From sequence record MK373794.1: DNA of 64,000 nt; one strand, 5' to 3'. Below the pieces are notes generated by a model that worked only from the letters and a program-made list of their open reading frames with translations, ran no database searches and was not told the DNA's origin. This document shows, piece by piece, positions 6,196 through 60,335 of this stretch. Position 1 is the stretch's first letter. Each line of letters starts with the position of its first letter. Both the position numbers and the translations under genes were made by a program. This DNA comes from Escherichia phage vB_EcoS_HdK1.

Positions 6196-6419
6196 GTGAT
6201 TCTACAAATGCGCAATTAGCCGCTGCAAGAGTGTATATGCGCGGAGCTGCCGCTGAGATTGATGCTTTGCCACAATTTGAAAAGCATGTACAGCAACTCG
6301 AAGATAAATTTAAGACTCTTAAAGATCTAGGGGATACGAAAGATGCTATAGCCTTTCTTCTTGCTATCCAATACTTGTCTATGGGGGTTGGTGACAAAGT
6401 ATGTTCCTTAGAAGAATAA
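6192..6419 (+). CDS. Hypothetical small protein, 75 aa
   Basis: ORF track (GTG start). Confidence 0.3.
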   Translation: MSDSTNAQLAAARVYMRGAAAEIDALPQFEKHVQQLEDKFKTLKDLGDTKDAIAFLLAIQYLSMGVGDKVCSLEE

Positions 6420-6931
6420 TTGGTATTGTTGCACCTTGGATACCACTTGTCATAATTGTTATTCTAGCCAACTGGGCTTATGACAATGCCATAGAATCAG
6501 CTAGAAAGGAGGGTTTCGATGCCGGTGTGTCGTACCAAAAAGAAACTCAGAAAGCGGTTGATTTCGAGGAGGAGAAACGAAGAGCGTATGAGAAAGACAC
6601 TATCGAACGTCAGTACAGATCTCGTATTGAATCTTTGGTTGCGATCTTAATAATTATCGCGCTACTAATGACAGGTTGCACAACGAAATCGCAACCGTCC
6701 GTAAGTACCTCGGTGACGCTACCGGCCCTCAGCCCGACAGCAAGACAACCGCCCAGATCGCCCGTGTGCTCACCGAGCTGTATTCAGAAAGCGTCACAGA
6801 ATACAGACAAGTGGCAGAAGAGGCTGAAAAGTATCGTATTGCCGGCGAGCAGTGCGAACTACAGTATGATGCAATGCGAAATCCGCGTAAAGAAAAGTGA
6901 TAAACTGCAAAGTCCTTGCCGGGTTGCGTAA
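6401..6931 (+). CDS. Candidate spanin locus: N-terminal transmembrane protein (i-spanin-like) whose frame also carries an internal lipobox and Pro-rich segment (o-spanin-like)
   Basis: N-terminal TMD IIGIVAPWIPLVIIVILA, charged helical region, then LLMTGC lipobox followed by a Pro/Cys-rich tail; sits directly upstream of the endolysin-like and holin genes. Confidence 0.4.
   Translation: MFLRRIIGIVAPWIPLVIIVILANWAYDNAIESARKEGFDAGVSYQKETQKAVDFEEEKRRAYEKDTIERQYRSRIESLVAILIIIALLMTGCTTKSQPSVSTSVTLPALSPTARQPPRSPVCSPSCIQKASQNTDKWQKRLKSIVLPASSANYSMMQCEIRVKKSDKLQSPCRVA
6676..6900 (+). CDS. Embedded alternate-frame ORF with coiled-coil character (possible C-terminal part of the i-spanin)
   Basis: Charged helical sequence lying wholly inside 6401..6931 in another frame; this frame is open from 6631. 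Confidence 0.3.
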   Translation: MHNEIATVRKYLGDATGPQPDSKTTAQIARVLTELYSESVTEYRQVAEEAEKYRIAGEQCELQYDAMRNPRKEK

Positions 6932-7022
6932 CTAAACGTTCAATCTTAATTGCACATAATTGATTGTGTACATGTGATAATTCAACTATGCTCTATTCGG
7001 TTTAACTGAATGGAGCTTTTTT

Positions 7023-7457
7023 ATGACTGTGCAACCACGAGGTATCCGGAATAACAATCCGGGAAATATTCGTTGGGGTGATAATTGGAAAGGTCTTGTT
7101 CCTGAAAACAAACGGACTGACCGTTCCTTCTGTCAATTTATCGATGTAAAATACGGTATTCGCGCCATTGCGCGTATTCTACTAAACTACCGCAACCGCG
7201 AAGGAATGAAACGTGTCGGAAACAAAGGGATTGACACTGTACGGGAGATTATTTCGCGCTGGGCTCCGCCGAATGAAAATAACACTGAAGCCTATATTCA
7301 ATCTGTGGCTAAGGCTTGTGGTGTTGGTGCAGAACAGCCGATTTCAGTGACCGATGATAAAATCATGCTTGCAATCGTGAAAGCGATTATCAAACATGAG
7401 AACGGTGTGCAACCTTATTCTGATGAAGTTTTGCTCGCGGGTATTCACATGGCATAG
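7023..7457 (+). CDS. Putative endolysin (peptidoglycan hydrolase), 144 aa
   Basis: Conserved N-terminal GIRNNNPGNIRWGDNWKG motif; position between the spanin candidate and the holin; GGAG ribosome-binding site. Confidence 0.5.
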   Translation: MTVQPRGIRNNNPGNIRWGDNWKGLVPENKRTDRSFCQFIDVKYGIRAIARILLNYRNREGMKRVGNKGIDTVREIISRWAPPNENNTEAYIQSVAKACGVGAEQPISVTDDKIMLAIVKAIIKHENGVQPYSDEVLLAGIHMA

Positions 7458-7470
7458 TAAGAGGTTATAA

Positions 7471-7779
7471 GTGTCGCCGAACTGGGATTGGAATATAGTT
7501 TTTATTCTCACTGCCATTGCGATGGTAGGGGGTTCCCTTGGCTACGCTGCAAGAACCCATGATGCTAAAGAAAGGTTCAGACTTAGTGTCTTCATTCAAG
7601 AGGGTGCTTTTTCTGCATTCTTTGGTTTCTTGATAGGTGTAATTAACGTGGAACATGGTGTCTCACTGGGGCTCAGTGGGGCGTTCATAGGCGTGTTATC
7701 TTGGTCCGGTTCAAGAACCATGCTAAAGTTTCTACGGAGAAAGACAGAAGCATGTGACCGAGAAAAGGAAAGAGGTTGA
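7471..7779 (+). CDS. Putative holin, 102 aa
   Basis: Small protein with at least two hydrophobic helices and a charged C-terminus, adjacent to the endolysin-like gene. Confidence 0.55.
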   Translation: MSPNWDWNIVFILTAIAMVGGSLGYAARTHDAKERFRLSVFIQEGAFSAFFGFLIGVINVEHGVSLGLSGAFIGVLSWSGSRTMLKFLRRKTEACDREKERG

Positions 7780-8018
7780 TTATGCGTCACTTCATCAATG
7801 ATCTTCTTATATTGTGTAAGAAACCGCGATTGCTTTTCATCTATATGATGATTGGACTTGCACAAATTGGAGTCAGTGCTATCGCCATTGATCAGATGCA
7901 CAAGAAACACAGGGCAAACCTGCAACCTTCAACACCACCTGTTTATGTGGTCAATAAGGTTGAACAAATCAAACAAGACATCCGGGAGATAACGTACATT
8001 CCTAAAGTTGAAATGTAG
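7776..8018 (+). CDS. Small membrane protein, 80 aa (possible antiholin or lysis regulator)
   Basis: Single hydrophobic helix; translationally coupled to the holin. Confidence 0.4.
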   Translation: MIMRHFINDLLILCKKPRLLFIYMMIGLAQIGVSAIAIDQMHKKHRANLQPSTPPVYVVNKVEQIKQDIREITYIPKVEM

Positions 8019-8033
8019 ATTGGTTTATAAGTA

Positions 8034-8071
8034 AAGCCCGCTCCTTGAATTTATATCGAGCGGGCTTTTTA
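8034..8071 (+). terminator. Rho-independent terminator after the lysis cassette
   Basis: AGCCCGCTC..GAGCGGGCT stem followed by TTTTT. Confidence 0.65.
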
Positions 8072-8101
8072 TTGACATTTGCTATAACCCTTGCAATTAA
8101 T
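8072..8101 (+). promoter_or_regulatory. Possible sigma70-like promoter upstream of the terminase genes (TTGACA, 18 bp, ATTAAT)
   Basis: Consensus -35 hexamer directly after the terminator; weak -10. Confidence 0.3.
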
Positions 8102-8147
8102 TAATCCACCGCTTATATTCGTGTCAAGAATCGACAGGAGTAACGTT

Positions 8148-8699
8148 ATGGTAAAGCCTATTCTACCTTGGACACGTAGCATTGAATACGAAGCCGATCT
8201 CACTAAAGAAGAGATGGCTATACGTGACTCTGTCGTTGAAGAATATCTGTTCGATTATGATTGGGTTAATGCGTGTAAACGTGTAGGCATGAGCTCCGCA
8301 ATGGCGTTTGATTATGCTAAACGTTTTCAGGATGATAGCTATTGCCAAAGACGAATTAAAGAACTTCAACAGCAGAAAGCAAGAAGTGCTCAACGTGACA
8401 GCAAATATGAAATAGAACAAGAGCGCCAGCGCATCATTGAAGGTCTTAGATTTGAATCCACTTATCGTGGTCCTGGATCTTCTCAAGCTGCTCGTGTTGC
8501 TGCATATAAACAATTATGTAGCATCTTTGGATTTGAAGCTCCTAAGCAACAGAAGATGGATGTTGGTGTATCTACTGGTGTTATGCTGGTTCCTATGGTT
8601 GGTTCTATGGATGATTGGGAAAGAGTTGCTGGGGAGTCTCAGACTAAGCTGCAAGAGGATACTTTAAATGGACTCAATGATTCAGACACCGTCCACTAA
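8148..8699 (+). CDS. terS: Terminase small subunit (putative)
   Basis: About 183-aa gene immediately upstream of and overlapping the large terminase; CAGGAG ribosome-binding site. Confidence 0.55.
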   Translation: MVKPILPWTRSIEYEADLTKEEMAIRDSVVEEYLFDYDWVNACKRVGMSSAMAFDYAKRFQDDSYCQRRIKELQQQKARSAQRDSKYEIEQERQRIIEGLRFESTYRGPGSSQAARVAAYKQLCSIFGFEAPKQQKMDVGVSTGVMLVPMVGSMDDWERVAGESQTKLQEDTLNGLNDSDTVH

Positions 8700-10266
8700 G
8701 GTAGTATGGAAACCACATCCAGGATCTCAGGTACTGGCACTGAGTTGTCCAGCGGATGAGATTTTATATCATGGTACTCGTGGCCCTGGAAAGACCGATG
8801 CCCAGTTGATGCGTTTTCGTCGTTATGTTGGCATGGGGTATGGTAAACACTGGCGCGGTATCATTTTTGACCGAGAATACAAAAACTTAGATGACTTAGT
8901 TGCAAAGTCACAGCGTTGGTTTCCTGAATTTAATGATGGTTGTAAATTCTTATCTTCCAAGTCAGATTATAAATGGGTATGGCCTAGCGGCGAAGAACTA
9001 ATGTTCCGTGTTGCTAAAAAGCCTAAGGATTACTGGCTGTACCACGGTCAGGAATTTCCATTTATTGGATGGAACGAATTAACTAAATATCCCGATAGTG
9101 GGCTTTATGAAGCAATGAAGTCTTGTAACCGTACATCCTTTGTTGCAGAAGAAAACCCGATAATTATTGACGGTGACGTGTATCAGAGAACTGGGCGTCT
9201 TGTGCTTGTTCAACCGGACCATGAATACGCAATGCAGTTCATACTACCACCTTTGCCGTTGCAGATCTTTTCTACGACTAACCCATTTGGGGTTGGACAT
9301 AACTGGGTCAAGAAATATTTTATTAACTCCTGTCCTCTTGGGTCCATGAAGAAGGAAGTAACAAACGTCTTCAACCCGCGTACACAGAAACGGGAAGACG
9401 TAGTTCGAACTCGCTGCCATATATTTGGTTCGTATCGAGAGAACCGCAACTTGACACCCGAGTATGTTGCGCAGCTTGTAAACATTGACGATCCTAACCT
9501 CCGTATGGCATGGCTCGGTGGTAGCTGGGATATTACGTCAGGTGGAATGTTCGACGACCTGTGGCGCCAGAATATACATGTGGTCAAACCATTTCCAATA
9601 CCTCACTCCTGGAGAATTGATAGATCATTTGACTGGGGCTCAAGTAAACCGTTTTCTGTCGGTTGGTGGGCAAGAAGTGATGGTAGCGATATCGTGTATC
9701 CAAATGGGCGTCGTGTACGAACAGTACGAGGTGACTTATTTAGGATCATGGAGTGGTATGGTACTAACGGGAAACCGAACGAAGGTTTAAGATTATTGGA
9801 TTCTGAAATTGCTCGTGGTATCATCGTCAGGGAAATTGAAGCTGGTTTATACGGTCGCGTAGTTCCAGGCCCTGCTGATAACAGCATTTGGGACGTTAAG
9901 GATGGTAACAGTACCGCAGCAACAATGTCTAAACCAATAACCATCAATGGTCGGTCTTATCCAGGTGTACAGTGGATTCGAAGTGATAAATCTCCTGGAT
10001 CTCGTAAAGCAGGTTGGAAACGAATGCGGGAATATTTAGCTGCTTCAATTCCGGATCCTAAGGTTGCCGCTTTACGTGAAAGACCTTCTATGTTTATTTT
10101 TGACAACTGTCATCACTTTATAGATCTTGTTCCAACTCTTGCCAGAGACGAAGATGATCTTGATGATGTCGATACTGATTCTGAAGACCACATTGCTGAC
10201 GAAGCTCGTTATCGCGTAGCCAACGAAGCACGTGGCGGTAGTATCGGTAAGACTGTGGGGACATAA
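8668..10266 (+). CDS. terL: Terminase large subunit
   Basis: 532 aa; N-terminal ATPase region with HGTRGPGKTD Walker A-like motif; C-terminal nuclease-type acidic residues; synteny with portal. Confidence 0.85.
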   Translation: MDSMIQTPSTKVVWKPHPGSQVLALSCPADEILYHGTRGPGKTDAQLMRFRRYVGMGYGKHWRGIIFDREYKNLDDLVAKSQRWFPEFNDGCKFLSSKSDYKWVWPSGEELMFRVAKKPKDYWLYHGQEFPFIGWNELTKYPDSGLYEAMKSCNRTSFVAEENPIIIDGDVYQRTGRLVLVQPDHEYAMQFILPPLPLQIFSTTNPFGVGHNWVKKYFINSCPLGSMKKEVTNVFNPRTQKREDVVRTRCHIFGSYRENRNLTPEYVAQLVNIDDPNLRMAWLGGSWDITSGGMFDDLWRQNIHVVKPFPIPHSWRIDRSFDWGSSKPFSVGWWARSDGSDIVYPNGRRVRTVRGDLFRIMEWYGTNGKPNEGLRLLDSEIARGIIVREIEAGLYGRVVPGPADNSIWDVKDGNSTAATMSKPITINGRSYPGVQWIRSDKSPGSRKAGWKRMREYLAASIPDPKVAALRERPSMFIFDNCHHFIDLVPTLARDEDDLDDVDTDSEDHIADEARYRVANEARGGSIGKTVGT

Positions 10267-12953: not shown

Positions 12954-14071
12954 ATGTCTAAAATTCTGTCAGCTCCGATGCTTAATTTGCGAGCTACCAA
13001 TTCAATTCTTCTGTCTGCTGTTCGTCGTGGTGCAATCACTGAACTTGCAGATGTTATCGTTCCAGAGATCTTCGTACCGTATGTGCAGAACCGCACAACT
13101 GAAAAGTCCCGACTGATCCAGTCTGGTGCTATTGAGATTTCTGAGCGTCTTAACGCTGCATTGATGGGTGAAGGTACTACCTTTAACCAGCGTTTCTTCA
13201 AAGATCTGGATCGTGACGAAGAAAACGTTTCAAGCGCAAGCGATTCAACCGATTCTACTCCTGGTGGTATCAAATCTGGGCGTGAAATTCAGATCCGTCT
13301 GTCCCGTAACCATTCCTGGGGTTCTGCGGACCTGCTGGACAGCCTGATCTCCCCGGACCCGCTGGATGCTATCATTAACTTAGTGGCAAGCTACCGTCAG
13401 AGCCGTCTGCAACGTGCATTCGTTGCAACTGTCAGTGGTGTGTTTGCTATGAACGCCGCTGCTCTCCGGTTGGTTCCGGTGATAAGAAGTCTACCCATGT
13501 TCAGAACGATATGACCCATGATATCTCTGGTTCATCCTTCACTGATGGTGTGACTAACTTCAACCCGGCCGGTGTTATCCTGGCGGCTGGTACTATGGGT
13601 GACTCCCTGAACGACCTGTCCATGATGATGGTTCACAGTGTGGTTTACCAGCGTATGCAGCTGATGAACCTGATCGACTTCATCCCGGATGCCCGTGCTG
13701 AAGTAATGATCCCAACTTACATGGGCCGTGAAGTTATCGTTGATGATATGATGCCTCACGATAGCGGTAAGTACGAAACCTGGCTGGTCGGTCGTCGTGG
13801 TGCATTCCAGTTAGGTGTTGGTTCACCGAAAGTTCCTGTTGAAACTGAACGTAAACCTGCGTCCTACAAAGGTGGCGGTTCTGAAATCCTGTTCCACCGC
13901 TGGGAAAACATCATTCACCCTGTCGGTCACGCATGGGTTGGTACTGCTGCTGAAGGTGGCCCGGATAACGCCGCTCTGAAGACTGCTGCCAACTGGGCTC
14001 GTGTATTCCCTGAGCGTAAACAGATTAAGATTGCTCGCCCTGATCACTCGCGAACACGCTTAATGCTTTAG
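12954..14071 (+). CDS. Major capsid protein, split into two frames by an apparent frameshift near 13455..13510
   Basis: Track ORFs 12822..13514 and 13511..14071 are contiguous in different frames; alternate frame reads VGSGDKKSTHVQNDMTHD across the junction; position after scaffold; flanked by terminators. Confidence 0.7.
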
Positions 14072-14625: not shown

Positions 14626-15298
14626 TGATGAAAGACAAGATCATTGAAGGGCTTCGTAAACTCAACGTTGAGAATGACAATCATTGGACTGCCGATGGCC
14701 TGCCTAAAATTGAAGCATTGAAGTTTACAGTTGGCCCGTCCGTCACGCGAGAAGATGTCAATTCTGTTGCGCCTGGGTTCACTCGTTTCAAATCCTGTAA
14801 TTGAGGACGTCGAACATGAAGAAAAGCATGACACTTCCTCATTGCAGGAAACCGAACAGACGGAAGTTGTTGCAGATACCGACAATGCACAATATGAGTC
14901 CTTATCTAAGGCTGAAGCAGATAAGGAAACTGTTAACGGTAAATCGATTGTCACTACGCGAGTAGCTTTAGAAGTCAACGTGAGCGATGCAGTTAAAGCA
15001 ATGCTCAAAGATATTCCAGATATTGACTTTGACACTGTTTCTGTGGAAGAGCTTAAAGAATATGAAAAAGTTCTTTTCGGAACAAGTCAACGCAGACAAC
15101 CAGATGTTATCTGCAATGCACGAACTTGTTGAATCTCGTGCTAAACTGTACGCAAAAGTCAACACTGAAATTGAACGTCGTAAGCCTAAGACCGAGCTGG
15201 CTCACACGTTAGCATCTTTCCGCGATCAGATGGCACAAATCCCACATGTAGTCAATCAGCCTCGTATGGTTGTTCGTAACGGTATTCGCACTCGTTAA
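14626..15298 (+). CDS. Hypothetical structural protein, fragmented by two apparent frameshifts (near 14790 and 15075)
   Basis: Three consecutive frames each read as plausible protein (MMKDKIIEGL.., ..NPVIEDVEHE.., ..EQVNADNQML..); the second junction lies in a GAAAAAGTTCTTTTC homopolymer context. Confidence 0.4.
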
Positions 15299-15642: not shown

Positions 15643-16148
15643 TATGACTGTAACTATCATTGTTGAAGATGGGTCTTGTGTACCTAACGCAAATAGCTAT
15701 ATTGATGTCGAATATGCTACGCAATATTTAGAAGACCGTGGATTTACTGTTCCGGGCGGAAGATAAGTTGAAACCTATGCTTATCAACGCAATGGATTTT
15801 ATGGAAAGTCTTAATCGCTATAAGGGTAAGCGCACCAACCAGGATCAGGAACTACAGTTCCCGCGCAGCGGCTTATACAGCGACGGTGTAGAGATTCCAG
15901 GTAATACCATACCCGTAGCAATTAAGCGAGCACAGGCCCAACTGGTCGCGGATACGGTGCAGAGCGGTAAGCCATTATTAAGTAACAGTACCAATTATGC
16001 ACTGAAAAAACGTATTCTTGGACCGCTGACGCTTGAATATGCAGTTGGTCAGAGTGCTGTATTAGAAAGTGCGACACCACACCCGCGTTTCTGGGCTTTG
16101 ATTAATGACTACCTGCGAAGCTCTAGCTCACAAGGAGTAATGCGATGA
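15643..16148 (+). CDS. Putative head-tail adaptor/connector protein, with an apparent frameshift near 15765
   Basis: Short N-terminal frame (MTVTIIVEDGS..) continues in the frame of track ORF 15738..16148; junction at the CCGGGCGG run. Confidence 0.4.
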
Positions 16149-19055: not shown

Positions 19056-19447
19056 GATCCCGCGAAAAGCTAATTGATCACTTACTGCTCGAATGGCAAT
19101 TGCACAGTTGCCCGCCGGGCAGTAAGACTCCAACAATTAAACATCTCCAGCACGTTAAAAAAGTCACTGGTAAGACTCCCTCCTTACTAGCAAAGTACGA
19201 ATCCAGCTCCGTACCACACGAACTCAGATACATTTACAAGTTATTTCTTGACTTTTATAATGGTGATAAATTCAGTTACAGCGAATTTAACGCCTGGCAA
19301 GATTATATAGGTGTAGAACTTGATTTCAGAGAGCGTGAACTAATTCGGGCCAGATTTGTCTTGAACGGCAAGCATTTGATATTAGGCGTCAACAAGAACT
19401 TATGCAACACGCTCAGACCAATAATAAAGGAGGTAAATAATGGCTGA
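19046..19447 (+). CDS. -1 frameshift extension of the tail assembly chaperone (GT-like fusion product)
   Basis: The -1 frame is open from 19013 through the chaperone stop to 19447; slippery heptamer T TTT TTC at 19046..19052; the extension overlaps the tape measure start. Confidence 0.5.
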   Translation, partial: FFLRSREKLIDHLLLEWQLHSCPPGSKTPTIKHLQHVKKVTGKTPSLLAKYESSSVPHELRYIYKLFLDFYNGDKFSYSEFNAWQDYIGVELDFRERELIRARFVLNGKHLILGVNKNLCNTLRPIIKEVNNG

Positions 19448-22400
19448 TGCAGCTGACATCGTCATTAGAGTCCGTGCTGAAGGTATTCAGAATGCTGAAA
19501 CAGCACTGCGACGCTTGCAAGCGGCAGGTGTAAGAGTTGAGACTGTCAGCTCGCGTATGGAGAATGGTTTTCACCGTGCGGCTACAAGTGCTGACGCGTT
19601 CCATCATGCCATTAGTGCAATCTATACGGTAATGACTGTAACCACACTGACATCCTACGTCGGTGGGCTTGCTAAGTTATCGGATGCGTGGCTGGACGTT
19701 ACTAACAAACTGGCTAACGCCAACTCTGCAAACGAGCAGATGGTTGATATTCAAGAGCGAGTATTTGGTATCGCTCAAAGAACTCGTACGAGCCTGGAAG
19801 CTACGTCAACTCTTTATGCTCGTATGGAACGTTCACTGAACCAGTACGGTGTGACTGGTAAACAGGTCGCTCAGATCACTGAAACAATTAACAAGGCAAT
19901 GATTGTTTCTGGTGCAACCACTGCGGAATCCACTGCTGCTATTATCCAGTTCTCACAGGGTCTGCAATCTGGTGTGTTACGTGGGGACGAATTCCGTTCT
20001 GTAATGGAACAAGCTCCTCGTCTTGGTAAGATGATTGCAGATGGTCTTGGTGTTGGTACTGCTGGTCTACGCCAGATGGCTAACACTGGACAATTAACCG
20101 CTGATGTTGTTATTAACTCCATCTCTAAAGCTGCATCAACTATTGACGATGAGTTTAATCGTACAATACCAACGTTCTCTCAGCGAATGGAGATTGCGAA
20201 TAACAACTTAATTAAATTCGCGGGGAACGTCAACCTCGGTACAAACTGTGGTCAATTCAATGGGTGCTGTCATTGAAACTGCTACAGACCACCTCACCTT
20301 GCTGTCTAATGTCGCAATCGGTGTTGCTGCTATTGTTGGCGGTCGAATGATTACTGCACTGGCTGCACAGATTGCGGCATTCATAAAGCTCAACGCGATA
20401 CAAGCAAGTAGCTCGGCCATAAACATTAAGACTATTGATGGTATCACAAGATCCGCAGTAGCTCGATATAATGAAGCACAAGCAACGTTAGCACAGGTTG
20501 CAGCCGAGCGCACCAAGATTCAGGCAGCATTGCAAGCCAACCAAACGTATTATAAAGGTATAGCGACACTCAACGCATACATGCAGAATACGCGGCAGGT
20601 GCGCGAAGCTACGGAAGCGGTTGCTATTGCCCAGACTACCATGCAGGCGCGTATGTCTGCCGCGACCGTAGCGTCCCGTGTGCTTACTGTCACCATGACA
20701 GGACTGCGGACGGTAATGGGCTTGATGGGTGGACCTGTAGGTGTGGTCACATTGGCTGCTGCCGCATGGTTCATGTGGAGTCAAAATAGCAAACAAGCTG
20801 TCCAGGATGCACAGAACCTTGCTTCCTCCCAAGAAGATTTAAAGAACAAGTTAAAAGAAACAACTCTTGAACAGCAACGAGCTCTTAGTGTTCAGTTGCA
20901 ACGTGCCGCTATTACGTTGGACGAACAGATTGCCTCTGAAAACAGGGAGTTGGCTGAATTAAAGAACCGTCTTAGCACAGTAACGCGCTATCAAGCTGAA
21001 GCAACTGAAGGAACAAGCGAGTATAACCGACTCACTAAAGACCGTAAGGAATTAGAAGGTGATGTCGCTATTAAGATTGGTGAAATATCCACTCTTGAGC
21101 AAAAAGCACAACAGATTAAATCTAATTTAACGACTGTACTGAACAATTTAACTGCTGCTGTAATGGGTCACACCGATGCACTCAAAGCAGAAAACGAGCA
21201 GTTATCTATTAATATCAGTTCTGCTGCCGGTCGTTCGAAGGAGCTAGTTAGTGCAATCCAAGCTCAGAATAATGAGCTCGATGTTGCTCAATTGAAGATG
21301 TCTGGTCATGCACGACAAGCAAGCATCTTAAAAGATGCTCAGACAGCTCTTGGTAAGAAGTATAAAGAAAACGAATCGTTCATCCAAGAATTATATTAGC
21401 GGTCACGCTGACGCAACTGCTGTATTAACGGATGAGCAACGAGGACTGGTTGAATTTATCAACTTGTCTGGAAAGAACTATGACGCTCAGAAGAAGATCC
21501 ATGAACAGCAAGAAAAAGAACGTCAGAGTAAGAAAGACAATAAAGCTGCCATACGCTATGCTGAACAATGGGATAAAGCATATGAACGCGTAGAAGCGCG
21601 TGGTGCTACTGGTTTACAGCGTCTTAACTTACAGCAAGAAGCTGAAGTTCGTGCTATTCGTGATAAAGCTGAACGAGCTAAAGCATCTGAAGAAGAATTA
21701 CAGAATGCCTTACTGGCTATTCAACGTAAGTACGATCTGAAACGTGCAGAACTGGCAGAGCAGTACAAGCCAGGCGTTGCAATGGTGCGTGCGTACAAAG
21801 AAGCCCAGCAAGAAATAAATCAGTTGCTTGAAGCTGGTTTATTGACAGAGCAACAGGCATATACGGCTAGATTGAATTTGCAGGCGGATTATTATACAAA
21901 ACGTGCGCAAATGCAATCTGAATTGAACCCCGCTGGACAAGCTGCTGATCAAGAAGCTGCTGAACTTGCAACACTTAAATCCCAGTATGAAACAGCGATT
22001 GAATTAGCTACTGGTAAGGAAGAGCAACTAACCGCTATCAAAGAGAACTATGAGCGCATACGACACGACATTCAGTTGAAGTACGCTCAGAAGCAGATGC
22101 TCGCACAGAACCAGACGGCAATGGCTTACATTGAAAGTCTGAGCTCTATGGCTGGATCAATGACCACAATTATGGCGGCTGCTGGCGATGATGCTAGTGG
22201 TGCTTACAGGGTTATGTTCGCACTGTCTAAATCGTTCAGTATTGCTCAGTCGATGTTAAGTATTACTACCGCACTGTCGCAGGTGTTAGCAGATCCGACA
22301 GCATTGACACCGATGCAAAAGATGGCCAACTACGCGACTATTGCAGCCGCTGGTGCTAACATTATTTCGACATTATCCAGTGTCGCCCTTACTGGTATGG

Positions 22401-31492: not shown

Positions 31493-32071
31493 TGTCTTTT
31501 GAAATGAGTAATGAAGACCAGACTGTAACTGTGTACGACTACTCCAATGATACGGGGCGAATATGTGGGAACCCGTGAAGCGTATGTGGTGGCCAACACA
31601 GGTCTTCCAGCATGTTGTACTGATATGGAGCCTCCAGTGGCTCCAGAAAATCATGTGGCAGTATTTAGACCGGAAAGTCAGGTATGGATTCTGCGTGAAG
31701 ACCATCGAGGGAAAGTTGTATATGATAAAGATACAGGACTTCCTTTAGTGATAACCACAATAGGATCTCTTCCGGATAATGTAACCTATATTGCTCCCGA
31801 TGGTGAACACATGAAGTGGAACGGCGATATGTGGGTAAACGATCCGGACGCACAACATGCTAAGTCGGTTGCGGATGCAGCACAACATAAAACGGATCTT
31901 CTTAATTTAGCAGATTATAAAATCAGTATTCTGCAGGATGCTGTGACTTATAATCTAGCTACTGACGAAGAAAGTTCGATGCTTGACTCCTGGAGAAAGT
32001 TTCGCGTACTTGTCAACCGTATAAACGAAAACAATCCACAGAATATTATCTGGCCTGAGTCTCCAGAATAA
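31492..32071 (+). CDS. Tail fibre assembly protein (Tfa-like chaperone), with an apparent frameshift near 31555
   Basis: ATG overlapping the fibre stop (TAATG); N-terminal frame [22 protein letters not shown] continues in the frame of track ORF 31547..32071. Confidence 0.65.
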
Positions 32072-32110
32072 TACCTGTCGTAGTGACCTCCATTAGCTTG
32101 ATATAAATAA

Positions 32111-38954: not shown

Positions 38955-39481
38955 TAGTTAACATGGCATTTAGATGTTTCTTCAATGGTACATTCTACCA
39001 GTTCAACACCATATTGGTCAAGCAGTTGAGGACCAATTACGTCAACCATATATGCAGCTAAGTTTTCCGCAGTTGGGTTGAATGGTAAAGCTACCAAAGA
39101 ATTAAAGAAAGGATCATAATCTTCATCCGTCACTAAATTGTTCTCGCGCGCAAACTTAGTCGATGCAACAACAATGAGCGAATTAATCAGGCTGTCTTGT
39201 TCCCAATGCAGGAACTTATGATCCCAATTATCTTCCAGCCACTGGCAGAGCGTAGTTTTAACCACACTAAAGTCGATAACGCGGCCTACATCGTCCAGGG
39301 ATCCTTCTAAAGCAAATCCACTTACAGACTTAACGTAACCTTCCGACAATGTTTTCTTTGGTGCGACTTTAAAATGGAACTTATAGTTGTGACCATGAAG
39401 ATGGCGACATTTGCTTTCGTGACCTACAACACGATGACCAGCGCAAATCTCGTGTGTGAAACGAATAACAGTGTAACCCAT
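38945..39481 (-). CDS. queD: 6-carboxy-5,6,7,8-tetrahydropterin synthase (QueD)
   Basis: C-x3-H-G-H motif (CRHLHGHNY) characteristic of the QueD family. Confidence 0.7.
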   Translation of the reverse strand: MGYTVIRFTHEICAGHRVVGHESKCRHLHGHNYKFHFKVAPKKTLSEGYVKSVSGFALEGSLDDVGRVIDFSVVKTTLCQWLEDNWDHKFLHWEQDSLINSLIVVASTKFARENNLVTDEDYDPFFNSLVALPFNPTAENLAAYMVDVIGPQLLDQYGVELVECTIEETSKCHVNYCK

Positions 39482-40900: not shown

Positions 40901-41647
40901 TTATTTACCTTCCTTAACCATTTCAATTTCACGCTCAACGGATGCAATAATATCGTTGAGGTCTTCCAGTAAGTCTTTATGACCGCGCTCACCCGCACAC
41001 AGCACTTTCTTCAGTGCATGTTGCATGGGCCCACTGGTTACATTGAATGCTTTAATTACGTCGTACACGTCAACCCATACATCAATTTCAATTGGGCTAC
41101 CATTAATGTCATGGGATTCAAAAGTTTTAATTTTGCGCATATATTTATTCGGACGTGGAGCTTTAATCTCCTGGATACAACCCTTGTCGATAAACGTTTC
41201 TTTAATAAATACTTCAGGATTACCTTCTTTGTCACGATCAACGTTAAAGACATTCGTAAGTAGATCGTCCATGATACTGGTTAATTTCTGAGTAGACGTC
41301 GTATGCTTCACGGTATTCACTTCCTCTTCTGCTTTCTGACTTCTTCTGGCAGAAGTATTGATACGCCATTTGTAAAGTGCATTACGTGGAGGCGTTACAT
41401 GCGTGTTGTAGACCGTCTTTAAGTTCATAAGATCGTGTCCATCCATACCTTCAACAAAGACAGTGAGTGCAGGGCAACTATCGTTCAGAACATCCACCAT
41501 ATACCCTTCTCGAATCACAGATGCAAGAGCTGCATGGGACGCAGCCTGAGAAACTGTGGTTACATAATGTTTTACAAATCCGTCTTCATCAAACAGACAC
41601 TGGTTCAACACATTTTCTGGAACGATTTCACCGAGTAAACTGAACAT
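40901..41647 (-). CDS. Hypothetical protein embedded in the 7-deazaguanine cluster
   Basis: 248 aa, tightly packed between the Gat-QueC and QueE genes on the same strand; no motif assigned. Confidence 0.45.
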   Translation of the reverse strand: MFSLLGEIVPENVLNQCLFDEDGFVKHYVTTVSQAASHAALASVIREGYMVDVLNDSCPALTVFVEGMDGHDLMNLKTVYNTHVTPPRNALYKWRINTSARRSQKAEEEVNTVKHTTSTQKLTSIMDDLLTNVFNVDRDKEGNPEVFIKETFIDKGCIQEIKAPRPNKYMRKIKTFESHDINGSPIEIDVWVDVYDVIKAFNVTSGPMQHALKKVLCAGERGHKDLLEDLNDIIASVEREIEMVKEGK

Positions 41648-42548: not shown

Positions 42549-43379
42549 ACAGATTACTCTGCAGTTTTCTGAGACGGAATTTCTACGTTAGCGGCCGCTT
42601 GTGCAATATTAGCAGGTACTGGAACGGATACGCGACCAGTAATGCCCATGTATTTCTTCCAGCGAGCGTATTCCGCTTTAACGTTGGCTTCGTTCAGGCC
42701 TTTGTCCAGTGCAACAGGCCAGAACGTAGCTGATCGGTGCAGTCTGCCCCAGCTCCAGGGTCACAGCGTCAAAGATATCCCATGCAGCACGGCACAGAGT
42801 ACCAACACCAGGCTTGCGAATACCGTTCTGTTCAGGCTCTTTCTTAGCTTCGCGTTCTGCTGCTTTACGAGCACGCTCTTCGTCCTGCAGACGTTTCTTC
42901 TCAGCGCGTTGTGCGTCACGTTTCGCTTTTTCAGCGGCCTTAGTGGCTTCGCGGGCAGCGGATACACGACCTTTAACATCTTTCAGAGTGGATTCAATGG
43001 AGGAAACCAGATCTTCAGATGCTGCAACGGCAGTTTTCAGCTGATCGTTGTCTTTAACTTTACGTGCTGCCGCTTTAACAGCTTTCAGACCTTCTTTAGC
43101 GGTCTTCAGCTGAGCGGTAACTACGCCTTCAACTGCTTTAACTTCGTCCAGCAATGAACCTTCGTTCAGGGTCGCGAACTGTTCTTTAACAGCGGACGTA
43201 GCACCTTCGATCACATTGTAACCGGCAGTGGCTTCGTTCATTGCGGCGTCAACTTTAGCCTGCAATTCACGTGCTGCTTTTTCTTCAGCTTCACGTTTTT
43301 TCTTTGCTTCAGCTTCTTTTGCTGCTTTCTTTGCTGCTTCTTCTGCTTCCAGTTGTTCTGGAGTTTTCTCTTTAGCCAT
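42549..43379 (-). CDS. Lys/Ala/Glu-rich protein (histone-like N-terminus), with an apparent frameshift near 42725
   Basis: Track ORF 42678..43379; an alternate frame continues plausibly (..ALDKGLNEANVKAEYARWKKYMGITGRV..) to a stop near 42549. Confidence 0.4.
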
Positions 43380-43475: not shown

Positions 43476-44199
43476 TTAATTTAAGCCACGTTCTTTTACC
43501 CAGACCCCTAATGTATTACTTGATGTATTACGCTTCACACCTTGTGCCTCTAAACGATCCATCATTTGTTTTCTAAGCTGAAGGATTTCCTTCTTGTCAC
43601 GAGGTTCACCAGCTTCTTTCCACATTTCGTCAGCAACAGCGAAAATAATATCGCGAGTGCCGGCTGTACGCGACGTTGCGGCACGTTTTTCGTTTGCCGG
43701 TGTGCTAGTACCTTGCCGCTCTCTTGTCGGTGTCCATGCCCCTTGTATGCCCATATTTGTTTGTACGGTTGGGCCGTCAATGATGGCGGATTCCAATGAA
43801 CTATCATTCCGTACTTGAATATTAGGCTCCTCCCCCAAATCTGGAACAGAGCTGCCTTCGCGGTACATGCACTCACCCTCTTTATTACTAGCAATTGCCC
43901 AGTCCGCTTGTTCAGCCACATCCGCATCTATTACTGTCTCCGGTATTTCATTTAAAAAGTAATGGATGATCTTACTGATCATTTTCTTTGGATATAAAGC
44001 ACCTTGCTTATTACCCGTTAAGTTGATGTACAAAAGCTGCATTTGCACATCATCAAACTCTTTATACAGTTCTTCAACTTCTAACGGGAAAGAACTACAG
44101 AACTTTCGCTACAGCATAGAATTCCATACTCATGAAGACGTTGAAAGTTTGGATGTTTGGCTAATACCTGCATCCGATCGTAATCAATTAAGACGTACA
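43476..44199 (-). CDS. Hypothetical protein, with an apparent frameshift near 44090
   Basis: Track ORFs 44081..44278 (MYVLIDYDRMQV..) and 43476..44048 join across a frame change. Confidence 0.35.
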
Positions 44200-44201: not shown

Positions 44202-44441
44202 TTAATCCTTCCACCATTCGGGCCCACAATACATTCCACGTAGTTCTTCACGCATGTAATTTTCAAACTCGTCTTCAATATTGATTACTTGACTTTCGTG
44301 AAAAACTGCTACACCATGAATAAATCGTTTAGCTCTTTCTCCTTTAATTACACCGTAACCTAACGCCTCCCACTCTTTAAAAGTCTTCCATTCACCATCT
44401 TCCGGTGAATAGTCGTCACTTCTAAACGTCATCTTTGCCAT
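44202..44441 (-). CDS. Hypothetical protein, about 80 aa
   Basis: Internal start MAKMTF of track ORF 44202..44609, avoiding overlap with the helicase. Confidence 0.4.
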   Translation of the reverse strand: MAKMTFRSDDYSPEDGEWKTFKEWEALGYGVIKGERAKRFIHGVAVFHESQVINIEDEFENYMREELRGMYCGPEWWKD

Positions 44442-49200: not shown

Positions 49201-50145
49201 TTATTCACTAATATCTGTTGGATCACGGAAACTTTGATGCGTAGGAATACGCAATTTGTCTTTCATACCGTGAGCAAAGAATTTCCATTTAGAAATCTTC
49301 CCAATGAATTCATCAGGATGCTCAAAATAATATTTACGTTCTTCGTGCGTAAGACGACCAGCACCTACACGCATCTCTTGCCCGACTTCAATAAGATCTT
49401 CAAGGCCTTCTGGTACTGTAAGCACACGTACATCAAATGAGCCGACCATACCATTTGGAACCATATTAGCTTGATGGCTTGAACGATAAGTCTGCCCTAA
49501 CTCATTAATCTGGGCTTCATTCCCATTGGTGCAACCTTCGATAATACGAATGATCTCACCTTCACCATCAGTGAAACGCTTAATGCGGAGATAACCGCCT
49601 TCACGCTGCGTACTACGACCCCATTTATATTTCGCTTCAAGGTCACGAATAATAACACCTTCGTATCCCATATCGAGCCAAATATTTTCCCACTCCAAGA
49701 GTTCTTGTTCGTTGTTGACCACATACAGTGGCACAAGTTTCACGTCCATTAACTCACCGTTAGCGTGGCATTCGTCCACGTACTTCTTGAGCATGTCATA
49801 ACGCTCTTTGTACGGTAGATGTGCAACATTCGGTTCGCATAAATCGAACACATGCCACGTCCAAACGTATTCAGCTTCGATTTTAGATGTTGCACTACTT
49901 GTCTTGCGACATAAATCAAAGTCTGTTTCGTCCCCAACGGCAAGCTCACCGTCCATACCATCATAGATGGGAGATCCAAATACCTTTGCGACCTGCTTAT
50001 TTGCAAAAGATTTAAGACTTCGTCCAACAAGCTCCCCAAACGGTTTCATCCCACGAACGCCGTCAATTTTAGGCATGATACCTACAGGGTATTTCTGTTT
50101 AGCTGAATCCCAATCTGTTGCTAGATAAGGTTTAAATCGAGCCAT
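49201..50145 (-). CDS. ATP-dependent DNA ligase
   Basis: Motif I KIDGVRG (K-x-D-G-x-R), motif IV-like EGVIIRD, motif V-like YLRIKR. Confidence 0.8.
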   Translation of the reverse strand: MARFKPYLATDWDSAKQKYPVGIMPKIDGVRGMKPFGELVGRSLKSFANKQVAKVFGSPIYDGMDGELAVGDETDFDLCRKTSSATSKIEAEYVWTWHVFDLCEPNVAHLPYKERYDMLKKYVDECHANGELMDVKLVPLYVVNNEQELLEWENIWLDMGYEGVIIRDLEAKYKWGRSTQREGGYLRIKRFTDGEGEIIRIIEGCTNGNEAQINELGQTYRSSHQANMVPNGMVGSFDVRVLTVPEGLEDLIEVGQEMRVGAGRLTHEERKYYFEHPDEFIGKISKWKFFAHGMKDKLRIPTHQSFRDPTDISE

Positions 50146-54636: not shown

Positions 54637-57201
54637 ATAACTTAATAACTTCGTTCATTCTCTCAATATCTACCAAATAACACTTCATTCTCGGTGGTGT
54701 AAACTCTGCGCCGAAGAAATTTGAAAAGTCCATTGGCCTCATCTCGGTAAGAACTTCCATAGACATCAAACCATAGATTGTATTGTCTATGACCTGTAGG
54801 ATGTTGTCATTTCTTGTCTGTTTAAAAGCCTTGAACTGGCGACATACTGTGCATAGATCACTCCTTGTGACAATAAATGCGTCCTTAAACATGGGAAACC
54901 GTTTATATACACCAGCTTTAACTTCACCATCCAAGAACTTCTTAATGGAGTTCAGCATTATCTTCTCACGACTTGTACTGTCCGTAGAACCAATCTGCCC
55001 ACTGTTACGCTTCTCTAAGAAACGCTCGTTACCCTGATCGATAAATGACTCAGCCCAACGATAATGTTCCATAGTGACAACAGGACGCTCACTGTTATCT
55101 GCAACAGCAAGAAGAGAAGCTATACGCAATACCTTCAACGCCTTCCTTGTGTACATCTGACGAATTACTTCGTCTTGCACCTGCTCACCATCATTGCCGC
55201 TGTTCAGGAACTTCGCAACAATATTATCAAGATTATCAAACGCTTCGTGTACCTCTGCTTCCATTTCAACATAACACGGAGCAGTCCCTGACATAATACG
55301 CACAGCTTGTTTATAGATAGCTCCAATAGTGCGCAGTATTGCTTCTGGATATTCCAGGAGCATACTCTTATTCATCAATGGGCGGTTAGCTGTACATTCC
55401 CATGCGATAATACGGGACATGAAACCACTCGACATCATGCGGTCATCTACGTTCCCGTAAAATTCATCTGGTGTTGTTTCACCTGCAAAACTATACGCCT
55501 TAACCTTACCGCCAGCAGTCGTATTATCTTTACTAGAGTGCTTTGAACCACCAGAGAAAGCATAGAAATGCCCCTTGTCATAAAGGGAAAGCATTTCATC
55601 CATAATGTCTTTAGCTTTACCGACTTCCATCTTACCGTTACGGAAAAAATGCACCGACTTCAGTCTTATAGTTAATGGATGAGCCACAAGACATAACGGA
55701 CGTATCCATTATGACATCCTTGCGCAATGCAGCATCAGACGCATAGGTACTTGTATCCAAGACACGTTCGATACCAAATATCTGCTGACCGTCTTGACCG
55801 CCATAATTGGATACTTGAGAAAAAAAAGAATAGTTTCAATGTTGGAGCGAAACGCTTCTTTACCAATACCAGAACGTGCAATTAGTACAAAGTAGTTATT
55901 CAAACCACTTCGTGTGACTGTGTTCCACGCCTTACCGCACATACCACTAAATAAAGCAAGCGCAGACAGAATACTAATGTCTTTAATAGGCAACAAGCTC
56001 GCTTTATACATATTACGCGCAACCTCGCCCATAAAGCCCGGAGGCCAAGCCAAACCGTCTGCCTGCTCTTCAGTGTAATTACCATCTGTAGTCAACACTT
56101 CTTCAGGTGGGCGTTCTGGTGTAGTTGCTTGACGTAGTTTTTCCGTGCGCTCTATAGCTGCATTAACGTTATTCTGAACTATCTGCATAAGTCCCATAGA
56201 TTTAACATGGGCATCGTAGCGATAGTTGCGAATCATTCTATCCAGGTGGTACGGACGTTTAATTTTTTCACCAGGCATACGACGGGGAATCATCGTAACG
56301 GCTACTCATTGGTGAATACATGAATAGACGTCTTACCTGGAAATTGTACTTACTCTTAAAGCAAAGAAAGTCAATTAATGCAAATTCTGCTTCAGACTGA
56401 GAAGGGAAACAACGTTCACCGATTAGAAGTATCAACTTCTTCAGCTCTCCAACGACCCTCCCATAGCTGCTTAAACAATGTTCCGTTTTCTTGTTCGCAC
56501 AACTGAATATAGACATCCTGGTCTTCCATTGCATATGGGTCGTTACTAAAATCTTCTTCAGTAAGTTCCAGCATTTGGAAGCCATCAGACTCATTAATCT
56601 CACTCATCTCAGACATAAGTTGGATGAATGAGATTAGCGATATACCCTTCGCTTTCACTGCCTGGAGCACCAGACACAGTGCGCGGGAGTAAAGTAACAT
56701 CCCAGTGATCCCCTGTACAGATAATAAAACGATACTGGGAATACACTTCCACACCGTCACGGCGCTTACCAGCCTGAGGGGATGGAATAAATCCATGTGT
56801 GCAACCCATCACCGCTTCTGGAAATTTCCGTATAGCTATGGAAACGATTCAACAATCTTCTTATATCGCTCACCAGCAACTTTCTTTTCCATTTCAGACA
56901 TGGTATCTTTAATGTCCATGTCGATACAACAGAACGGGTCACTTGGAAGTAGATAGAAACCTAAACGCAAGTTATGACCAATCTCGTTATAATAACGAAC
57001 GCAGCGTTCAGCATCTTCAAAAGACATAAGTAAATGCAGGTTAGACGGTTTCTTATCATTACCGTCTTTACGAAGTGGGACCATATCCCCTAAATCATCG
57101 TCCCATACATAAGGTTGTTTTTCTGATGATGTACCCGGATGGAAACCGCAGACAGCCCACTGTTCGTATTGTTTAATTTCTTGAGGAAAAAGTTCCAGCA
57201 T
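54635..57201 (-). CDS. Putative bifunctional DNA primase-polymerase (AEP-type N-terminal domain plus C-terminal domain), fragmented into at least five ORFs by apparent frameshifts
   Basis: Track ORFs 54635..55687, 55709..56293, 56416..56796 and 56836..57201 plus alternate-frame readings form one continuous coding region; AEP-like motifs CIDMD and RSGDGLH; frame changes at plus-strand A6 (55645..55650) and A8 (55821..55828) runs. Confidence 0.45.
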
Positions 57202-58203: not shown

Positions 58204-58205
58204 GA

Positions 58206-58514
58206 TTATTGCTCCATAGCTTGTTTCATCAATGCGTCATAGATACGTTTCGTGCTAGACGCGTTCCACAGTTGTTCGTCTGTCTGAACTTCCTGGTTCC
58301 ATTGCTTGTCCAATAAACCTTCTTCATACGCATCTTTAATACGCTTGCACAAAGTAAGGATGTCTGTTTGAAGAATATCAATTTCTTCTTGAGTTAACGG
58401 AGCATTCTTAAATGGCTCTTTAACTACTGCAATAATTGCTTCATAAATGCTGTATGCAATGCCGCCGCAACAATGTGCCTCCCGCGCAATAGCTTCACCA
58501 ATGTCGTCTGTCAT
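58206..58514 (-). CDS. Hypothetical protein, 102 aa
   Basis: ORF track. Confidence 0.4.
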   Translation of the reverse strand: MTDDIGEAIAREAHCCGGIAYSIYEAIIAVVKEPFKNAPLTQEEIDILQTDILTLCKRIKDAYEEGLLDKQWNQEVQTDEQLWNASSTKRIYDALMKQAMEQ

Positions 58515-58546
58515 TTCACGCGGGATAATAACAGGATCTGCAAGGA

Positions 58547-58756
58547 TTAGATAGAGCGAAGAGCCTGCAACTCTTTCTCCAATTGGTCGATTCGCATATC
58601 ACGATGTCCCAACTCCGCAGCAATAGCACTTTTACTATGCAGTTGTTCGGACGTCATTGCCATAACGTGACGAGAATAAAAACCACCAGCTTTATCTAAT
58701 TCAAAAGCGTCACGCTCTTGATATAAACGCACACATTCTTTACTCATCTTTGCCAC
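58547..58756 (-). CDS. Hypothetical small protein, 69 aa
   Basis: ORF track. Confidence 0.35.
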   Translation of the reverse strand: MAKMSKECVRLYQERDAFELDKAGGFYSRHVMAMTSEQLHSKSAIAAELGHRDMRIDQLEKELQALRSI

Positions 58757-59099
58757 CTTCTTTATTCAGTTGACTACATGCTGGAGTCCATTGTCCGTTC
58801 AATGTCCGCTTAAGATCATCTTTGCGCATACGTTCGAACCATTCAGTGTGGTCATGAGGATTGTCGCTTACTTTATAGTCAATATTAACACACGTTTCTT
58901 TGAAATCCATACCTTCCAGGTCCACGTTATAACAGATATCTATTTCAATACCTGGCTCAGTTAATACCCAAAAACCATCGCCATCGATACATTCGCACCA
59001 CTGAGGCTCATTCTCGAACGCAGTTAAAGTACCGTCCTCGTCGACCGCAAGGTATTTCGCCCACACTGGAACAAACAACACTTCACCGAAGTATCGCAC
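58740..59099 (-). CDS. Hypothetical protein, 119 aa
   Basis: ORF track. Confidence 0.4.
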   Translation of the reverse strand: MRYFGEVLFVPVWAKYLAVDEDGTLTAFENEPQWCECIDGDGFWVLTEPGIEIDICYNVDLEGMDFKETCVNIDYKVSDNPHDHTEWFERMRKDDLKRTLNGQWTPACSQLNKEGGKDE

Positions 59100-59116
59100 A
59101 GCCTTCTGGAGTAAGA

Positions 59117-59446
59117 TTAATTTGCATGTTCACCTCGAAGCAGACGCTCGAGCTTCGATTTATTTTTGATAAGCTGATATTGCCGATCCACCACAAGCGC
59201 CTTCTGACGGTTACGCATAAGGTATTCGAACGCACTTTGAAAATCTTCGACTTTACCTTCATAACCTAAAGCCTTGGCGACGTGCGACACGCGATGGAAC
59301 AGAAAGTCCGCAAAGTCCATAATTTCCATCGCATTGACAATAGCGTCAAGTAAATCAGGATTTATATTCGGGTCCACCTTTTTAGCTTGTTCAAGAAGTC
59401 GCACCTTTGCTTTATATAAAGGTGAATTGCTTACTGTTTGCATCAC
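59117..59446 (-). CDS. Hypothetical protein, 109 aa
   Basis: ORF track. Confidence 0.4.
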   Translation of the reverse strand: MMQTVSNSPLYKAKVRLLEQAKKVDPNINPDLLDAIVNAMEIMDFADFLFHRVSHVAKALGYEGKVEDFQSAFEYLMRNRQKALVVDRQYQLIKNKSKLERLLRGEHAN

Positions 59447-60335
59447 TTCCTCCAGATATCACGCGATTCTTTAATACGGATGTTATACCGTATAAGTTGC
59501 TGCATAACTTTATGCAGGTCATCGAGATGCTTCCTTAAACGAAGACGTTTCTTGATAGCCCACAAGTTCTTCATATCCGTTCGTTGGAGATCCTCCCTTA
59601 AATACAATGAAAAGTCAGTCTGGTGATCTAAGATAAATTGGATACGCATCAAAGTATCCGACTTACGATAATCAGGATACCACTTAGGAAGCACATCTTG
59701 TTCGCCAATCATCTTACGCTCCAAACTGATCAATGTATTCAATGAGCTCTTGCAATTCTTGCTGTAACTGCACATTACCACTATTATTCGTCTGAAGTCT
59801 AACGAGGCGTTCCTTGATATGTGCAATGTGGTTAGTGCCCATCCGACGCTTCTGTACATCACACCAGCGAACAACACCATCTTCAATATATGCACGACGG
59901 GCTTTACCACGCGGGTATCGCAGCGGCGCCGAATTTCACACTTATCGCCCACCCACTTAAAGCCCAGGATCATAACAGCGTTACCTTCCGTATCAGGACA
60001 CACGTCAAAACAACTGTTGAACCCTTTACTGCGCATATACTCGTCGAGCGGAATCACCTTATCAGGCGACAACCATTGATACCCGAAGTAAATATCGACA
60101 GTGAACACCGTACCCAACATCGGAGCCGACCAGCACATATACATCCGCCCGTCATCCAACTTCTTGACCGCATTCGGCCCGCAACACGAGGCCAGCCGCC
60201 TTCCACGCTTTGACCACATTAATCGTGTTGTCCTGCTCCTGAAAGATTGCGTCTGCCTGCATATATGTAGGCGCGTCCCAGCCCGAACATTTCCTTTACA
60301 TGAGCATTAGTGATTTTAACCTTTTGATTGCGCAT
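59443..60335 (-). CDS. First gene of the leftward replication-block operon; hypothetical, with apparent internal frameshifts
   Basis: ATG at 60335 preceded by AGGTGAGG; protein-like reading switches frame at least twice before joining track ORF 59443..60219. Confidence 0.3.

Follow-up and report, generated by a model that had tools for sequence, protein, structure and literature searches.

The first 64,000 bases of sequence record MK373794, which form the stretch analysed here (the window), raise the question of why so many conserved phage genes appear to be split by changes of reading frame, and whether these frameshifts belong to the phage or to its deposited sequence. The record is that of vB_EcoS_HdK1 (HdK1), a 9g-like coliphage of the genus Nonagvirus, subfamily Queuovirinae, listed in Table S4 of Korf et al. 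2019 (Viruses 11:454; PMC6563267) with 64,059 bp, 100 coding sequences (CDSs), 228.7x coverage and a terminal repeat of about 3.4 kb. The window comprises 60,692 unique bases plus terminal repeat, its positions 60693-64000 being an exact copy of 1-3308 (3,308 bp), that is, the direct terminal repeat cut off by the window end; a circular wrap, considered for this duplication, was dropped on recognizing the record's own repeat. An initial annotation, made from the sequence alone, had described ±1 frameshifts, mostly at homopolymers, and had ascribed them to systematic indel error in the form of long-read homopolymer miscalls.

In order to locate the responsible indels, HdK1 was aligned with five complete genomes, namely JenK1 (NC_029021), HdSG1 (MK373795), 9g (NC_024146), JenP2 and ESCO3. 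Synteny was complete, and identity was 97.4% with JenK1 and 92–96% with the other four. Assignment to Nonagvirus is in line with the genome-wide identity of 92–97.5% and with the DpdA-FolE-QueD-GatQueC-QueE cluster, all genes of which in JenK1 map to the window; this cluster for the synthesis of deoxyarchaeosine (dG+) is common to HdK1 and the five relatives. An indel was considered private when all aligned relatives departed from the window by one and the same net length, and the unique part of the genome was compared in this way with the five genomes. An extra panel of 17 IMG/VR loci (metagenomic relatives together with JenP1, JenP2 and SE1) covered 23 sites, with 7–10 loci per covered site; seven sites between 28137 and 44088 lay outside these loci and were judged on the complete genomes alone.

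This census yielded 30 private indels in HdK1, all located within genes annotated in JenK1. Twenty-six of them were out of frame in the 60,692 unique bases, with 24 insertions and 2 deletions (+1 in 19 cases, +2 in four, +5 in one and −1 in two), and none of the private frameshift events fell inside the terminal repeat. At least one frameshift was present in 16 genes, including those for the major capsid protein, adaptor, tape measure, tail fibre, DpdA and primase, the last with seven. This contrasted with the five relatives, in which none of the 30 indels was present and all 16 affected genes are single open reading frames (ORFs). When the same procedure was applied to each relative in turn, 0–7 out-of-frame private events were obtained (none in JenK1, and 6, 3, 7 and 4 in the others). 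The IMG/VR loci carried the relatives' state at all 23 covered sites, the sole exception being SE1, which shares an A5>A6 extension with HdK1 at 55644. Alignment to intact homologues, a check proposed in the initial annotation, located the indels; each junction listed there was within about 20 nucleotides (nt) of an indel private with respect to all aligned relatives, and further sites were found at 5968, 6642, 14038, 19349, 41637 and 59108. The frame changes are therefore present in the record, but they are not a mixture of plus and minus, 24 of 26 being insertions and 19 being +1.

As written in the window, the primase gene is in eight pieces, the gp07-like, tape measure and gp66-like genes are in three each, and the capsid, adaptor, tail fibre, tail fibre assembly, DpdA, gp37-like, gp38-like and spanin genes are in two each. 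Ten ORFs of the window were looked up, of which eight, among them five fragments of genes and two chimeras created by frameshifts, proved identical to deposited HdK1 CDSs (HdK1rev_ locus tags). Deposited as separate CDSs are a 186-amino acid (aa) C-terminal fragment of the capsid protein (QBQ80928.1), a truncated DpdA of 287 aa (QBQ80958.1) and a primase fragment (QBQ80986.1), with further fragments as QBQ80951.1 and QBQ80964.1; the chimeras are QBQ80996.1 (258 aa) and a spanin fusion of 176 aa (QBQ80919.1). Fragments are labelled as ordinary, separate 'hypothetical proteins' in the MK373794 annotation, and the word 'frameshift' is absent from the text of Korf et al. 2019 (PMC6563267), with no mention of any for HdK1. 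The deposited CDS count is 100, compared to 93 in the sister phage HdSG1, which bears out the earlier caution that gene boundaries and small-ORF calls in this record are provisional. The interval 59443-60335, by contrast, had been taken as one gene, whereas the relatives have two genes there (gp65 and gp66) and the 258-aa ORF of the window is chimeric.

After 25 reversions, every affected gene formed one stop-free segment across the whole JenK1 orthologue, with 94–100% identity; repaired gp66, the N-terminus of which is divergent, showed 84% identity to JenK1 over residues 18–206. Downstream of the first frameshift in each gene, read in the JenK1 frame, 283 synonymous and 102 non-synonymous differences were counted, and 307 of 420 base differences were at third positions. 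Unaffected genes projected in the same way on the JenK1 frame gave a like pattern (703:164), and the corresponding values downstream of the breaks were 53:2 in the primase gene and 35:5 in the tape measure gene. Since differences 3′ of the breaks are mostly synonymous, purifying selection appears to have acted on these segments until essentially the present.

Programmed recoding at some of the junctions, by ribosomal frameshifting or transcriptional slippage, can be dismissed as exceedingly improbable: although the 19349 event sits in the chaperone-like gp15, −1 frameshifting is known from the tail assembly chaperone genes of tailed phages, and the A8 run at 55820 looks slippery, the relatives have single uninterrupted ORFs and shorter runs at every site, so that a two-frame layout is not conserved, programming cannot account for a primase gene interrupted eight times, and the 14 relatives examined at the A8 position all have A3.

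True mutations, in a defective or decaying genome, either as a pseudogenised phage or as a dead-end variant swept through the stock, are also very unlikely. In their favour, and thus against sequencing error, it may be said that the junctions were judged from the finished consensus sequence alone and that A5>A6 at 55644 recurs in SE1, as would be expected at a slippage hot spot. However, apart from that case, the events were not seen in other relatives. The spectrum, with 24 insertions to 2 deletions and with pairs of adjacent runs both extended, is not one expected from mutation. In a pseudogenised genome, relaxed selection and secondary lesions would be expected downstream of the breaks; instead, selection was maintained and no stops remained once the indels were removed. 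Furthermore, HdK1 is an isolate that was purified from plaques, tested for its host range and viewed by transmission electron microscopy (Korf et al. 2019, PMC6563267). Because it propagates as an isolate, it cannot be without capsid, adaptor, tape measure, tail fibre and primase, and 26 frameshifts in 16 genes that include these, seven of them in the primase gene, are incompatible with a plaque-forming phage; the earlier argument that essential virion genes cannot all be pseudogenes is therefore sound.

Taken together, the privacy of the indels, the repair of the genes by reversion, the continuing selection downstream and the viability of the isolate lead us to conclude that the HdK1 frameshifts are, with high probability, consensus errors in the deposited sequence, and not mutations, pseudogenes or recoding, in agreement with the systematic indel error first proposed. 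The frameshifts are not a genuine biological feature, and in the real phage the genes are almost certainly intact at all or nearly all event positions. As a reservation, some events that leave the ORF near-intact may be true variation, i.e., those at 5968, 41637 and 59108, the in-frame +3 at 13789 and at 39457, the +6 at 56687 and the −24 at 59136.

We then considered the character of the errors, which could be decomposed into 23 elementary run extensions. In the reference state, the extended run measured 1 nt in seven cases, 2 in nine, 3 in six and 5 in one, such that runs of 1–3 nt took 22 of the 23. Insertion rates per 1000 runs were 0.21, 0.97 and 2.8 for lengths 1, 2 and 3, respectively, whereas no event occurred in the 439 runs of 4 nt. 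Among 29 runs of at least 6 nt, 27 had the same length as in the relatives, and the remaining two were themselves created by insertions (55644 and 55820). Counting frameshifts against homopolymer positions, as had been suggested, thus revealed no concentration in the longest runs. The description 'mostly at homopolymers' holds insofar as a base is duplicated beside itself, but the runs concerned are mostly of 1–3 nt. Classic long-homopolymer miscalling of the 454, Ion Torrent or Oxford Nanopore type does not account for this profile, given that the longest runs were spared and that insertions outnumbered deletions by 24 to 2. Of the earlier attribution to long-read homopolymer miscalls, the long-read origin is plausible (the source platform being PacBio RS II or Illumina), but long homopolymers are essentially error-free and the affected runs are short and biased in context, as described below.

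At two positions, 19349 (GGC>GGGCC) and 44088 (GGAA>GGGAAA), two adjacent runs each gained one base, which looks like signal stretching rather than mutation. The error process is thus almost purely insertional, adding an extra copy of a base in a short run and sometimes in two adjacent runs. With about 229x coverage, random read errors would be outvoted, and the process must therefore be systematic. The idea of low-quality regions was rejected: none of 257 window-specific substitutions lay within 10 nt of a frameshift, and substitutions did not track the indel clusters. The events themselves were clustered, the primase gene alone having seven within 1.25 kb (P ~ 1e-4 if a uniform spread is assumed).

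With regard to sequence context, GA or GGC on either strand was present at 21 of the 23 run extensions, compared to 35% of all runs (binomial P = 4e-8). When the null was matched for the base and the length of each run, 10.6 such cases were expected (P ~ 2e-6, or 2e-5 with the two double events collapsed). Each of the two contexts was enriched by itself, GA-type accounting for 14 of 23 against 31% (P = 0.003) and GGC-type for 7 of 23 against 4.2% (P = 3e-5). The base following extended G-runs was A in eight cases, C in four (always after at least two G) and T in one. A candidate modified G was present on both strands within 3 nt in 9 of 19 events, compared to 24% under the null (P = 0.02), and four of the five private single-base run insertions of SE1 were GA-type; both observations lend weak support to the link with DNA modification considered below.

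These two contexts correspond to those in which the DpdA of phage CAjan installs preQ0, namely GA and GGC, while GT, GGT and single-G GC are left unmodified (Kot et al. 2020, PMC7544227). CAjan belongs to the same subfamily (Queuovirinae) as HdK1, and the same two contexts stand out in the sequencing data of both, obtained from native DNA for CAjan and probably so for HdK1. The systems differ in that the CAjan modification is preQ0 and was mapped deliberately from raw nanopore signal against mutant and amplified controls (PMC7544227), whereas the HdK1 modification is dG+ and the signal consists of some 23 consensus errors in a finished record, without a control. At the protein level, JenK1 DpdA shares 69% identity with that of CAjan over 304 aa (full length), and the repaired HdK1 protein is 99.7% identical to that of JenK1. 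In the repaired HdK1 genome, 26.5% of G occurs in GA and 30.4% in GA or GGC; in 9g, deoxyarchaeosine was measured at 25–27% of dG. Tsai et al. 2017 found no modification motif for 9g. HdK1 DNA has been described as resistant to some restriction enzymes (Korf et al. 2019, PMC6563267). A paper on phage Mimir124 was set aside, as this phage is a Gamaleyavirus.

As the likeliest proximate cause, we propose that native, unamplified virion DNA with dG+ at the DpdA target sites was sequenced on a single-molecule platform, probably PacBio RS II followed by HGAP3. Where the polymerase met a modified G, it might then pause or its pulse kinetics might change, giving rise to reproducible extra-base calls, which the consensus step would have retained. 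In the source study, either sheared native DNA was run on PacBio RS II and assembled with HGAP3, or Nextera libraries amplified by polymerase chain reaction (PCR) were sequenced on Illumina and assembled with SPAdes (Korf et al. 2019, PMC6563267). Many insertion errors would be hard to obtain from Illumina and SPAdes, and insertions of a neighbouring base are typical of single-molecule real-time (SMRT) reads, from which we infer a PacBio assembly of modified DNA. In SMRT sequencing on the PacBio RS II, the dominant raw error is an inserted base identical to its neighbour. That the HdK1 insertions represent over-calling at deoxyarchaeosine-modified sites in native-DNA sequencing is a proposition for which we consider the balance to be even. 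Slightly more doubtful is the broader proposal, which rests on the context analysis, that the DpdA of Nonagvirus would place deoxyarchaeosine at GA and GGC, the dual motif of CAjan, and that the errors might be a footprint of the modification.

Several observations weigh against an involvement of dG+. The GA/GGC hypothesis was formed after the sites had been viewed, and it borrows the motif of a sister genus; for 9g-like phages, the literature gives the target motif of dG+ as unknown. There are about 8,100 candidate GA/GGC sites and merely some 25 errors, and the clustering in the primase gene is not explained by the motif alone. In the right arm (37441-60178), the G is on the plus strand in all ten GA/GGC-type contexts, while the left arm is mixed (5 to 6); this bias may come from strand-biased read support. 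Korf et al. 2019 (PMC6563267) do not say which platform served for HdK1; had PCR-based Illumina sequencing been used, the proposed mechanism would fall, since modified bases are lost upon amplification. A literature search on PacBio insertion errors at modified bases returned nothing specific.

Ordinary residual indel errors of long-read or flow-chemistry sequencing, with an intrinsic context bias and with no part played by the modification, are in our view a serious alternative for the proximate cause, still short of probable. PacBio RS II is among the platforms of the source study (PMC6563267). The per-run insertion rate climbs with run length over 1–3 nt, and the spatial clustering would be expected from local coverage or quality problems. 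HdSG1, which comes from the same study and is expected to be equally modified, is nearly without such errors. The habit of PacBio RS II of inserting copies of neighbouring bases also fits, and a platform intrinsically biased at G-then-A junctions would produce a like GA/GGC pattern. On the other hand, random errors should have been outvoted at the coverage obtained, long homopolymers were called correctly (27 of the 29 runs of at least 6 nt, and all 439 of 4 nt), and the joint enrichment of GA and GGC with depletion of GT fits the published DpdA motif (PMC7544227) and no generic bias known to us.

Whichever proximate cause applies, the biological interest of the HdK1 frameshifts is low, and their value lies in a data-quality warning and a motif hint. 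With at least 15 genes fragmented or chimeric, MK373794 as it stands is unsuited to studies of gene content, protein clustering or pseudogene inference, and its fragments are already in protein databases as separate 'hypothetical proteins'; after 25 edits, its proteome is a normal one for a Nonagvirus. The case shows how dozens of systematic frameshifts can persist in a hypermodified phage genome assembled, presumably from long reads, at high coverage, and SE1 looks similar. If the context bias does reflect dG+, it would provide a cheap pointer to the DpdA motif of 9g-like phages and would flag a reproducible failure mode for assemblies of phage genomes modified with 7-deazaguanines.

With regard to the individual sites, those of the left arm are all in plus-strand genes. 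An HslV-like gene (the JenK1 gp80 homologue) has lost one T at 5968-5968 (TT in the relatives), 12 codons before its end; the deletion is private with respect to the five genomes and ten IMG/VR loci, alters the C-terminal tail alone, and could be either error or natural variation. In the Rz-like spanin gene, a −1 C at 6642-6642 (GCC in the relatives) in mid-gene yields the 176-aa fusion ORF 6401-6931 (+; QBQ80919.1), in which the N-terminal half of the i-spanin is joined to the other frame. This product clusters with annotated o-spanins of BASEL phages, which implies a putative o-spanin gene embedded in the +1 frame and without annotation in JenK1 or 9g.

The major capsid gene is split at codon 170 by a +2 CT at 13462-13463 (on the minus strand, GA duplicated), with the C-terminal fragment at 13511-14071 deposited as QBQ80928.1. 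It also carries a private in-frame +3 in a GTC repeat at 13789-13794, which is either error or natural, and, near its 3′ end, a second shift by +1 at 14038-14040 (CC>CCC, in a GCC context). The gp07-like structural gene is cut into its three pieces by +1 insertions at 14786-14788 (TT>TTT, then C) and 15074-15077 (TTT>TTTT, then C), and the head-tail adaptor Ad1 gene is split at codon 37 by a +1 at 15754-15756 (GG>GGG, then C). In gp15, which is Phage_TAC_18-like (tail assembly chaperone-like), the +2 at 19347-19351 (GGC>GGGCC, two adjacent runs lengthened) alters the last 29 codons. The tape measure gene is broken into three by +1 insertions at 20222-20225 (GGG>GGGG, then A) and 21384-21385 (C>CC, with T before). 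A 35-mer with the extra G at 20222 was found neither in IMG/VR nor in JGI metagenomes or GTDB genomes, while the version without it was found in IMG/VR.

Further along this arm, the tail fibre gene is separated from its initial 104 codons by a +1 at 28137-28139 (GG>GGG, then A), and the tail fibre assembly gene carries a +1 at 31554-31557 (GGG>GGGG, then C), one fragment being QBQ80951.1. Once repaired, the latter gene gives a 192-aa match to 9g tfa. It is intact in 9g, and also in HdK1 once the extra G at 31554 is removed, whereas it is split in JenK1 (−1, at about 23600) and HdSG1 (+TC, at about 31671) at a common GGATCTCTTCCGG site, a TC/GA repeat that corresponds to HdK1 31760-31775. Either errors recur at this site, or it is a hot spot of slippage.

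The affected genes of the right arm are all on the minus strand. In the DpdA gene, a +1 at 37441-37442 (G>GG, then T) lies outside GA/GGC and removes the last 52 codons, leaving the 287-aa product QBQ80958.1. A private in-frame +3 is present near the start of the QueD gene at 39457-39459, as a TG repeat plus an A-run extension. At 41637-41640, a +1 with an adjacent substitution affects the gp35-like gene at its 5′ end, but an alternative ATG keeps the ORF intact; this event at the N-terminus is probably natural. The Lys/Ala/Glu-rich gp37-like gene carries a +1 at 42719-42720 (GGC>GGCC; fragment QBQ80964.1) and the gp38-like gene a +2 at 44086-44091, where GGAA>GGGAAA lengthens two adjacent runs.

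Within the primase gene, the first event is a +1 at 55644-55649 (GG-A5>A6), with an identical over-length run in the SE1 record, followed by a +5 at 55820-55827 (GAG-A3>A8). Insertions of +1 are then found at 56284-56287 (GGG>GGGG, then A), at 56423-56424 (GAT>GATT, the run itself being off-motif), at 56622-56623 (G>GG, then A), at 56778-56781 (GGG>GGGG, then A) and at 56842-56844 (GG-AA>AAA), which together leave the gene in its eight stop-free pieces. An in-frame +6 at 56687-56692 consists of GG>GGG and an AGTAA duplication. This +6 and one in-frame +3 each combine a short tandem duplication with a run extension in a GA context, and may be compound errors.

Towards the end of the unique sequence, codon 7 of the gp63-like gene is hit by a +1 at 59108-59109 (G>GG, then A), and the 3′ end of the gp64-like gene has a private in-frame deletion of 24 nt at 59136-59136, which is probably natural. 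The gp66-like gene carries a +2 at 59926-59927 (CGGCCG>CGGCGCCG) and a +1 at 60178-60180 (GGCC>GGCCC), which together give the chimeric 258-aa ORF 59443-60219 (QBQ80996.1).

A comparable picture is offered by Salmonella phage SE1 (NC_042025 / KY926791), a Nonagvirus like HdK1, in which the tape measure, major tail and primase genes are split into two or three CDSs each (e.g., in record regions 4959-8221, 9073-10255 and 30337-32888). Its record holds 11 private out-of-frame indels, including the GG-A5>A6 identical to HdK1 55644, and the four GA-type insertions mentioned above stand beside GA/TC; compared to HdK1, events are fewer, and insertions and deletions are more evenly mixed. The 9g record (NC_024146) has three private 1-nt deletions, at about 22112, 24874 and 30418, none in GA/GGC. 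They coincide with a primase gene annotated as shorter (2,268 nt instead of 2,550) and with an HslV-like gene that is truncated (252 nt instead of 495), and are probably errors in that record.

Outside the affected genes, an ORF for an HNH_3 homing endonuclease was found at 3477-3956 (+; Pfam E = 1e-22), at the position of JenK1 gp75, while the window (at 50128-50145) lacks the HNH gene that JenK1 carries between its ligase and RNase H genes; the HNH genes thus look like mobile elements at alternative sites in the two phages. The central tail fibre J protein (24290-27418, +; 1,042 aa) is 100% identical to that of JenK1, in genomes that differ by 2.6% overall, and in the side tail fibre (28058-31492) there is a sharp divergence from JenK1 near 30470-30565. 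Finally, a small gene at 44202-44441 (−) is present in HdK1, HdSG1, JenP2 and ESCO3 and absent from JenK1 and 9g, and its product gives a weak, sub-threshold match (E = 5e-4) to the N-terminal domain of ArdC, an anti-restriction, single-stranded DNA-binding protein.

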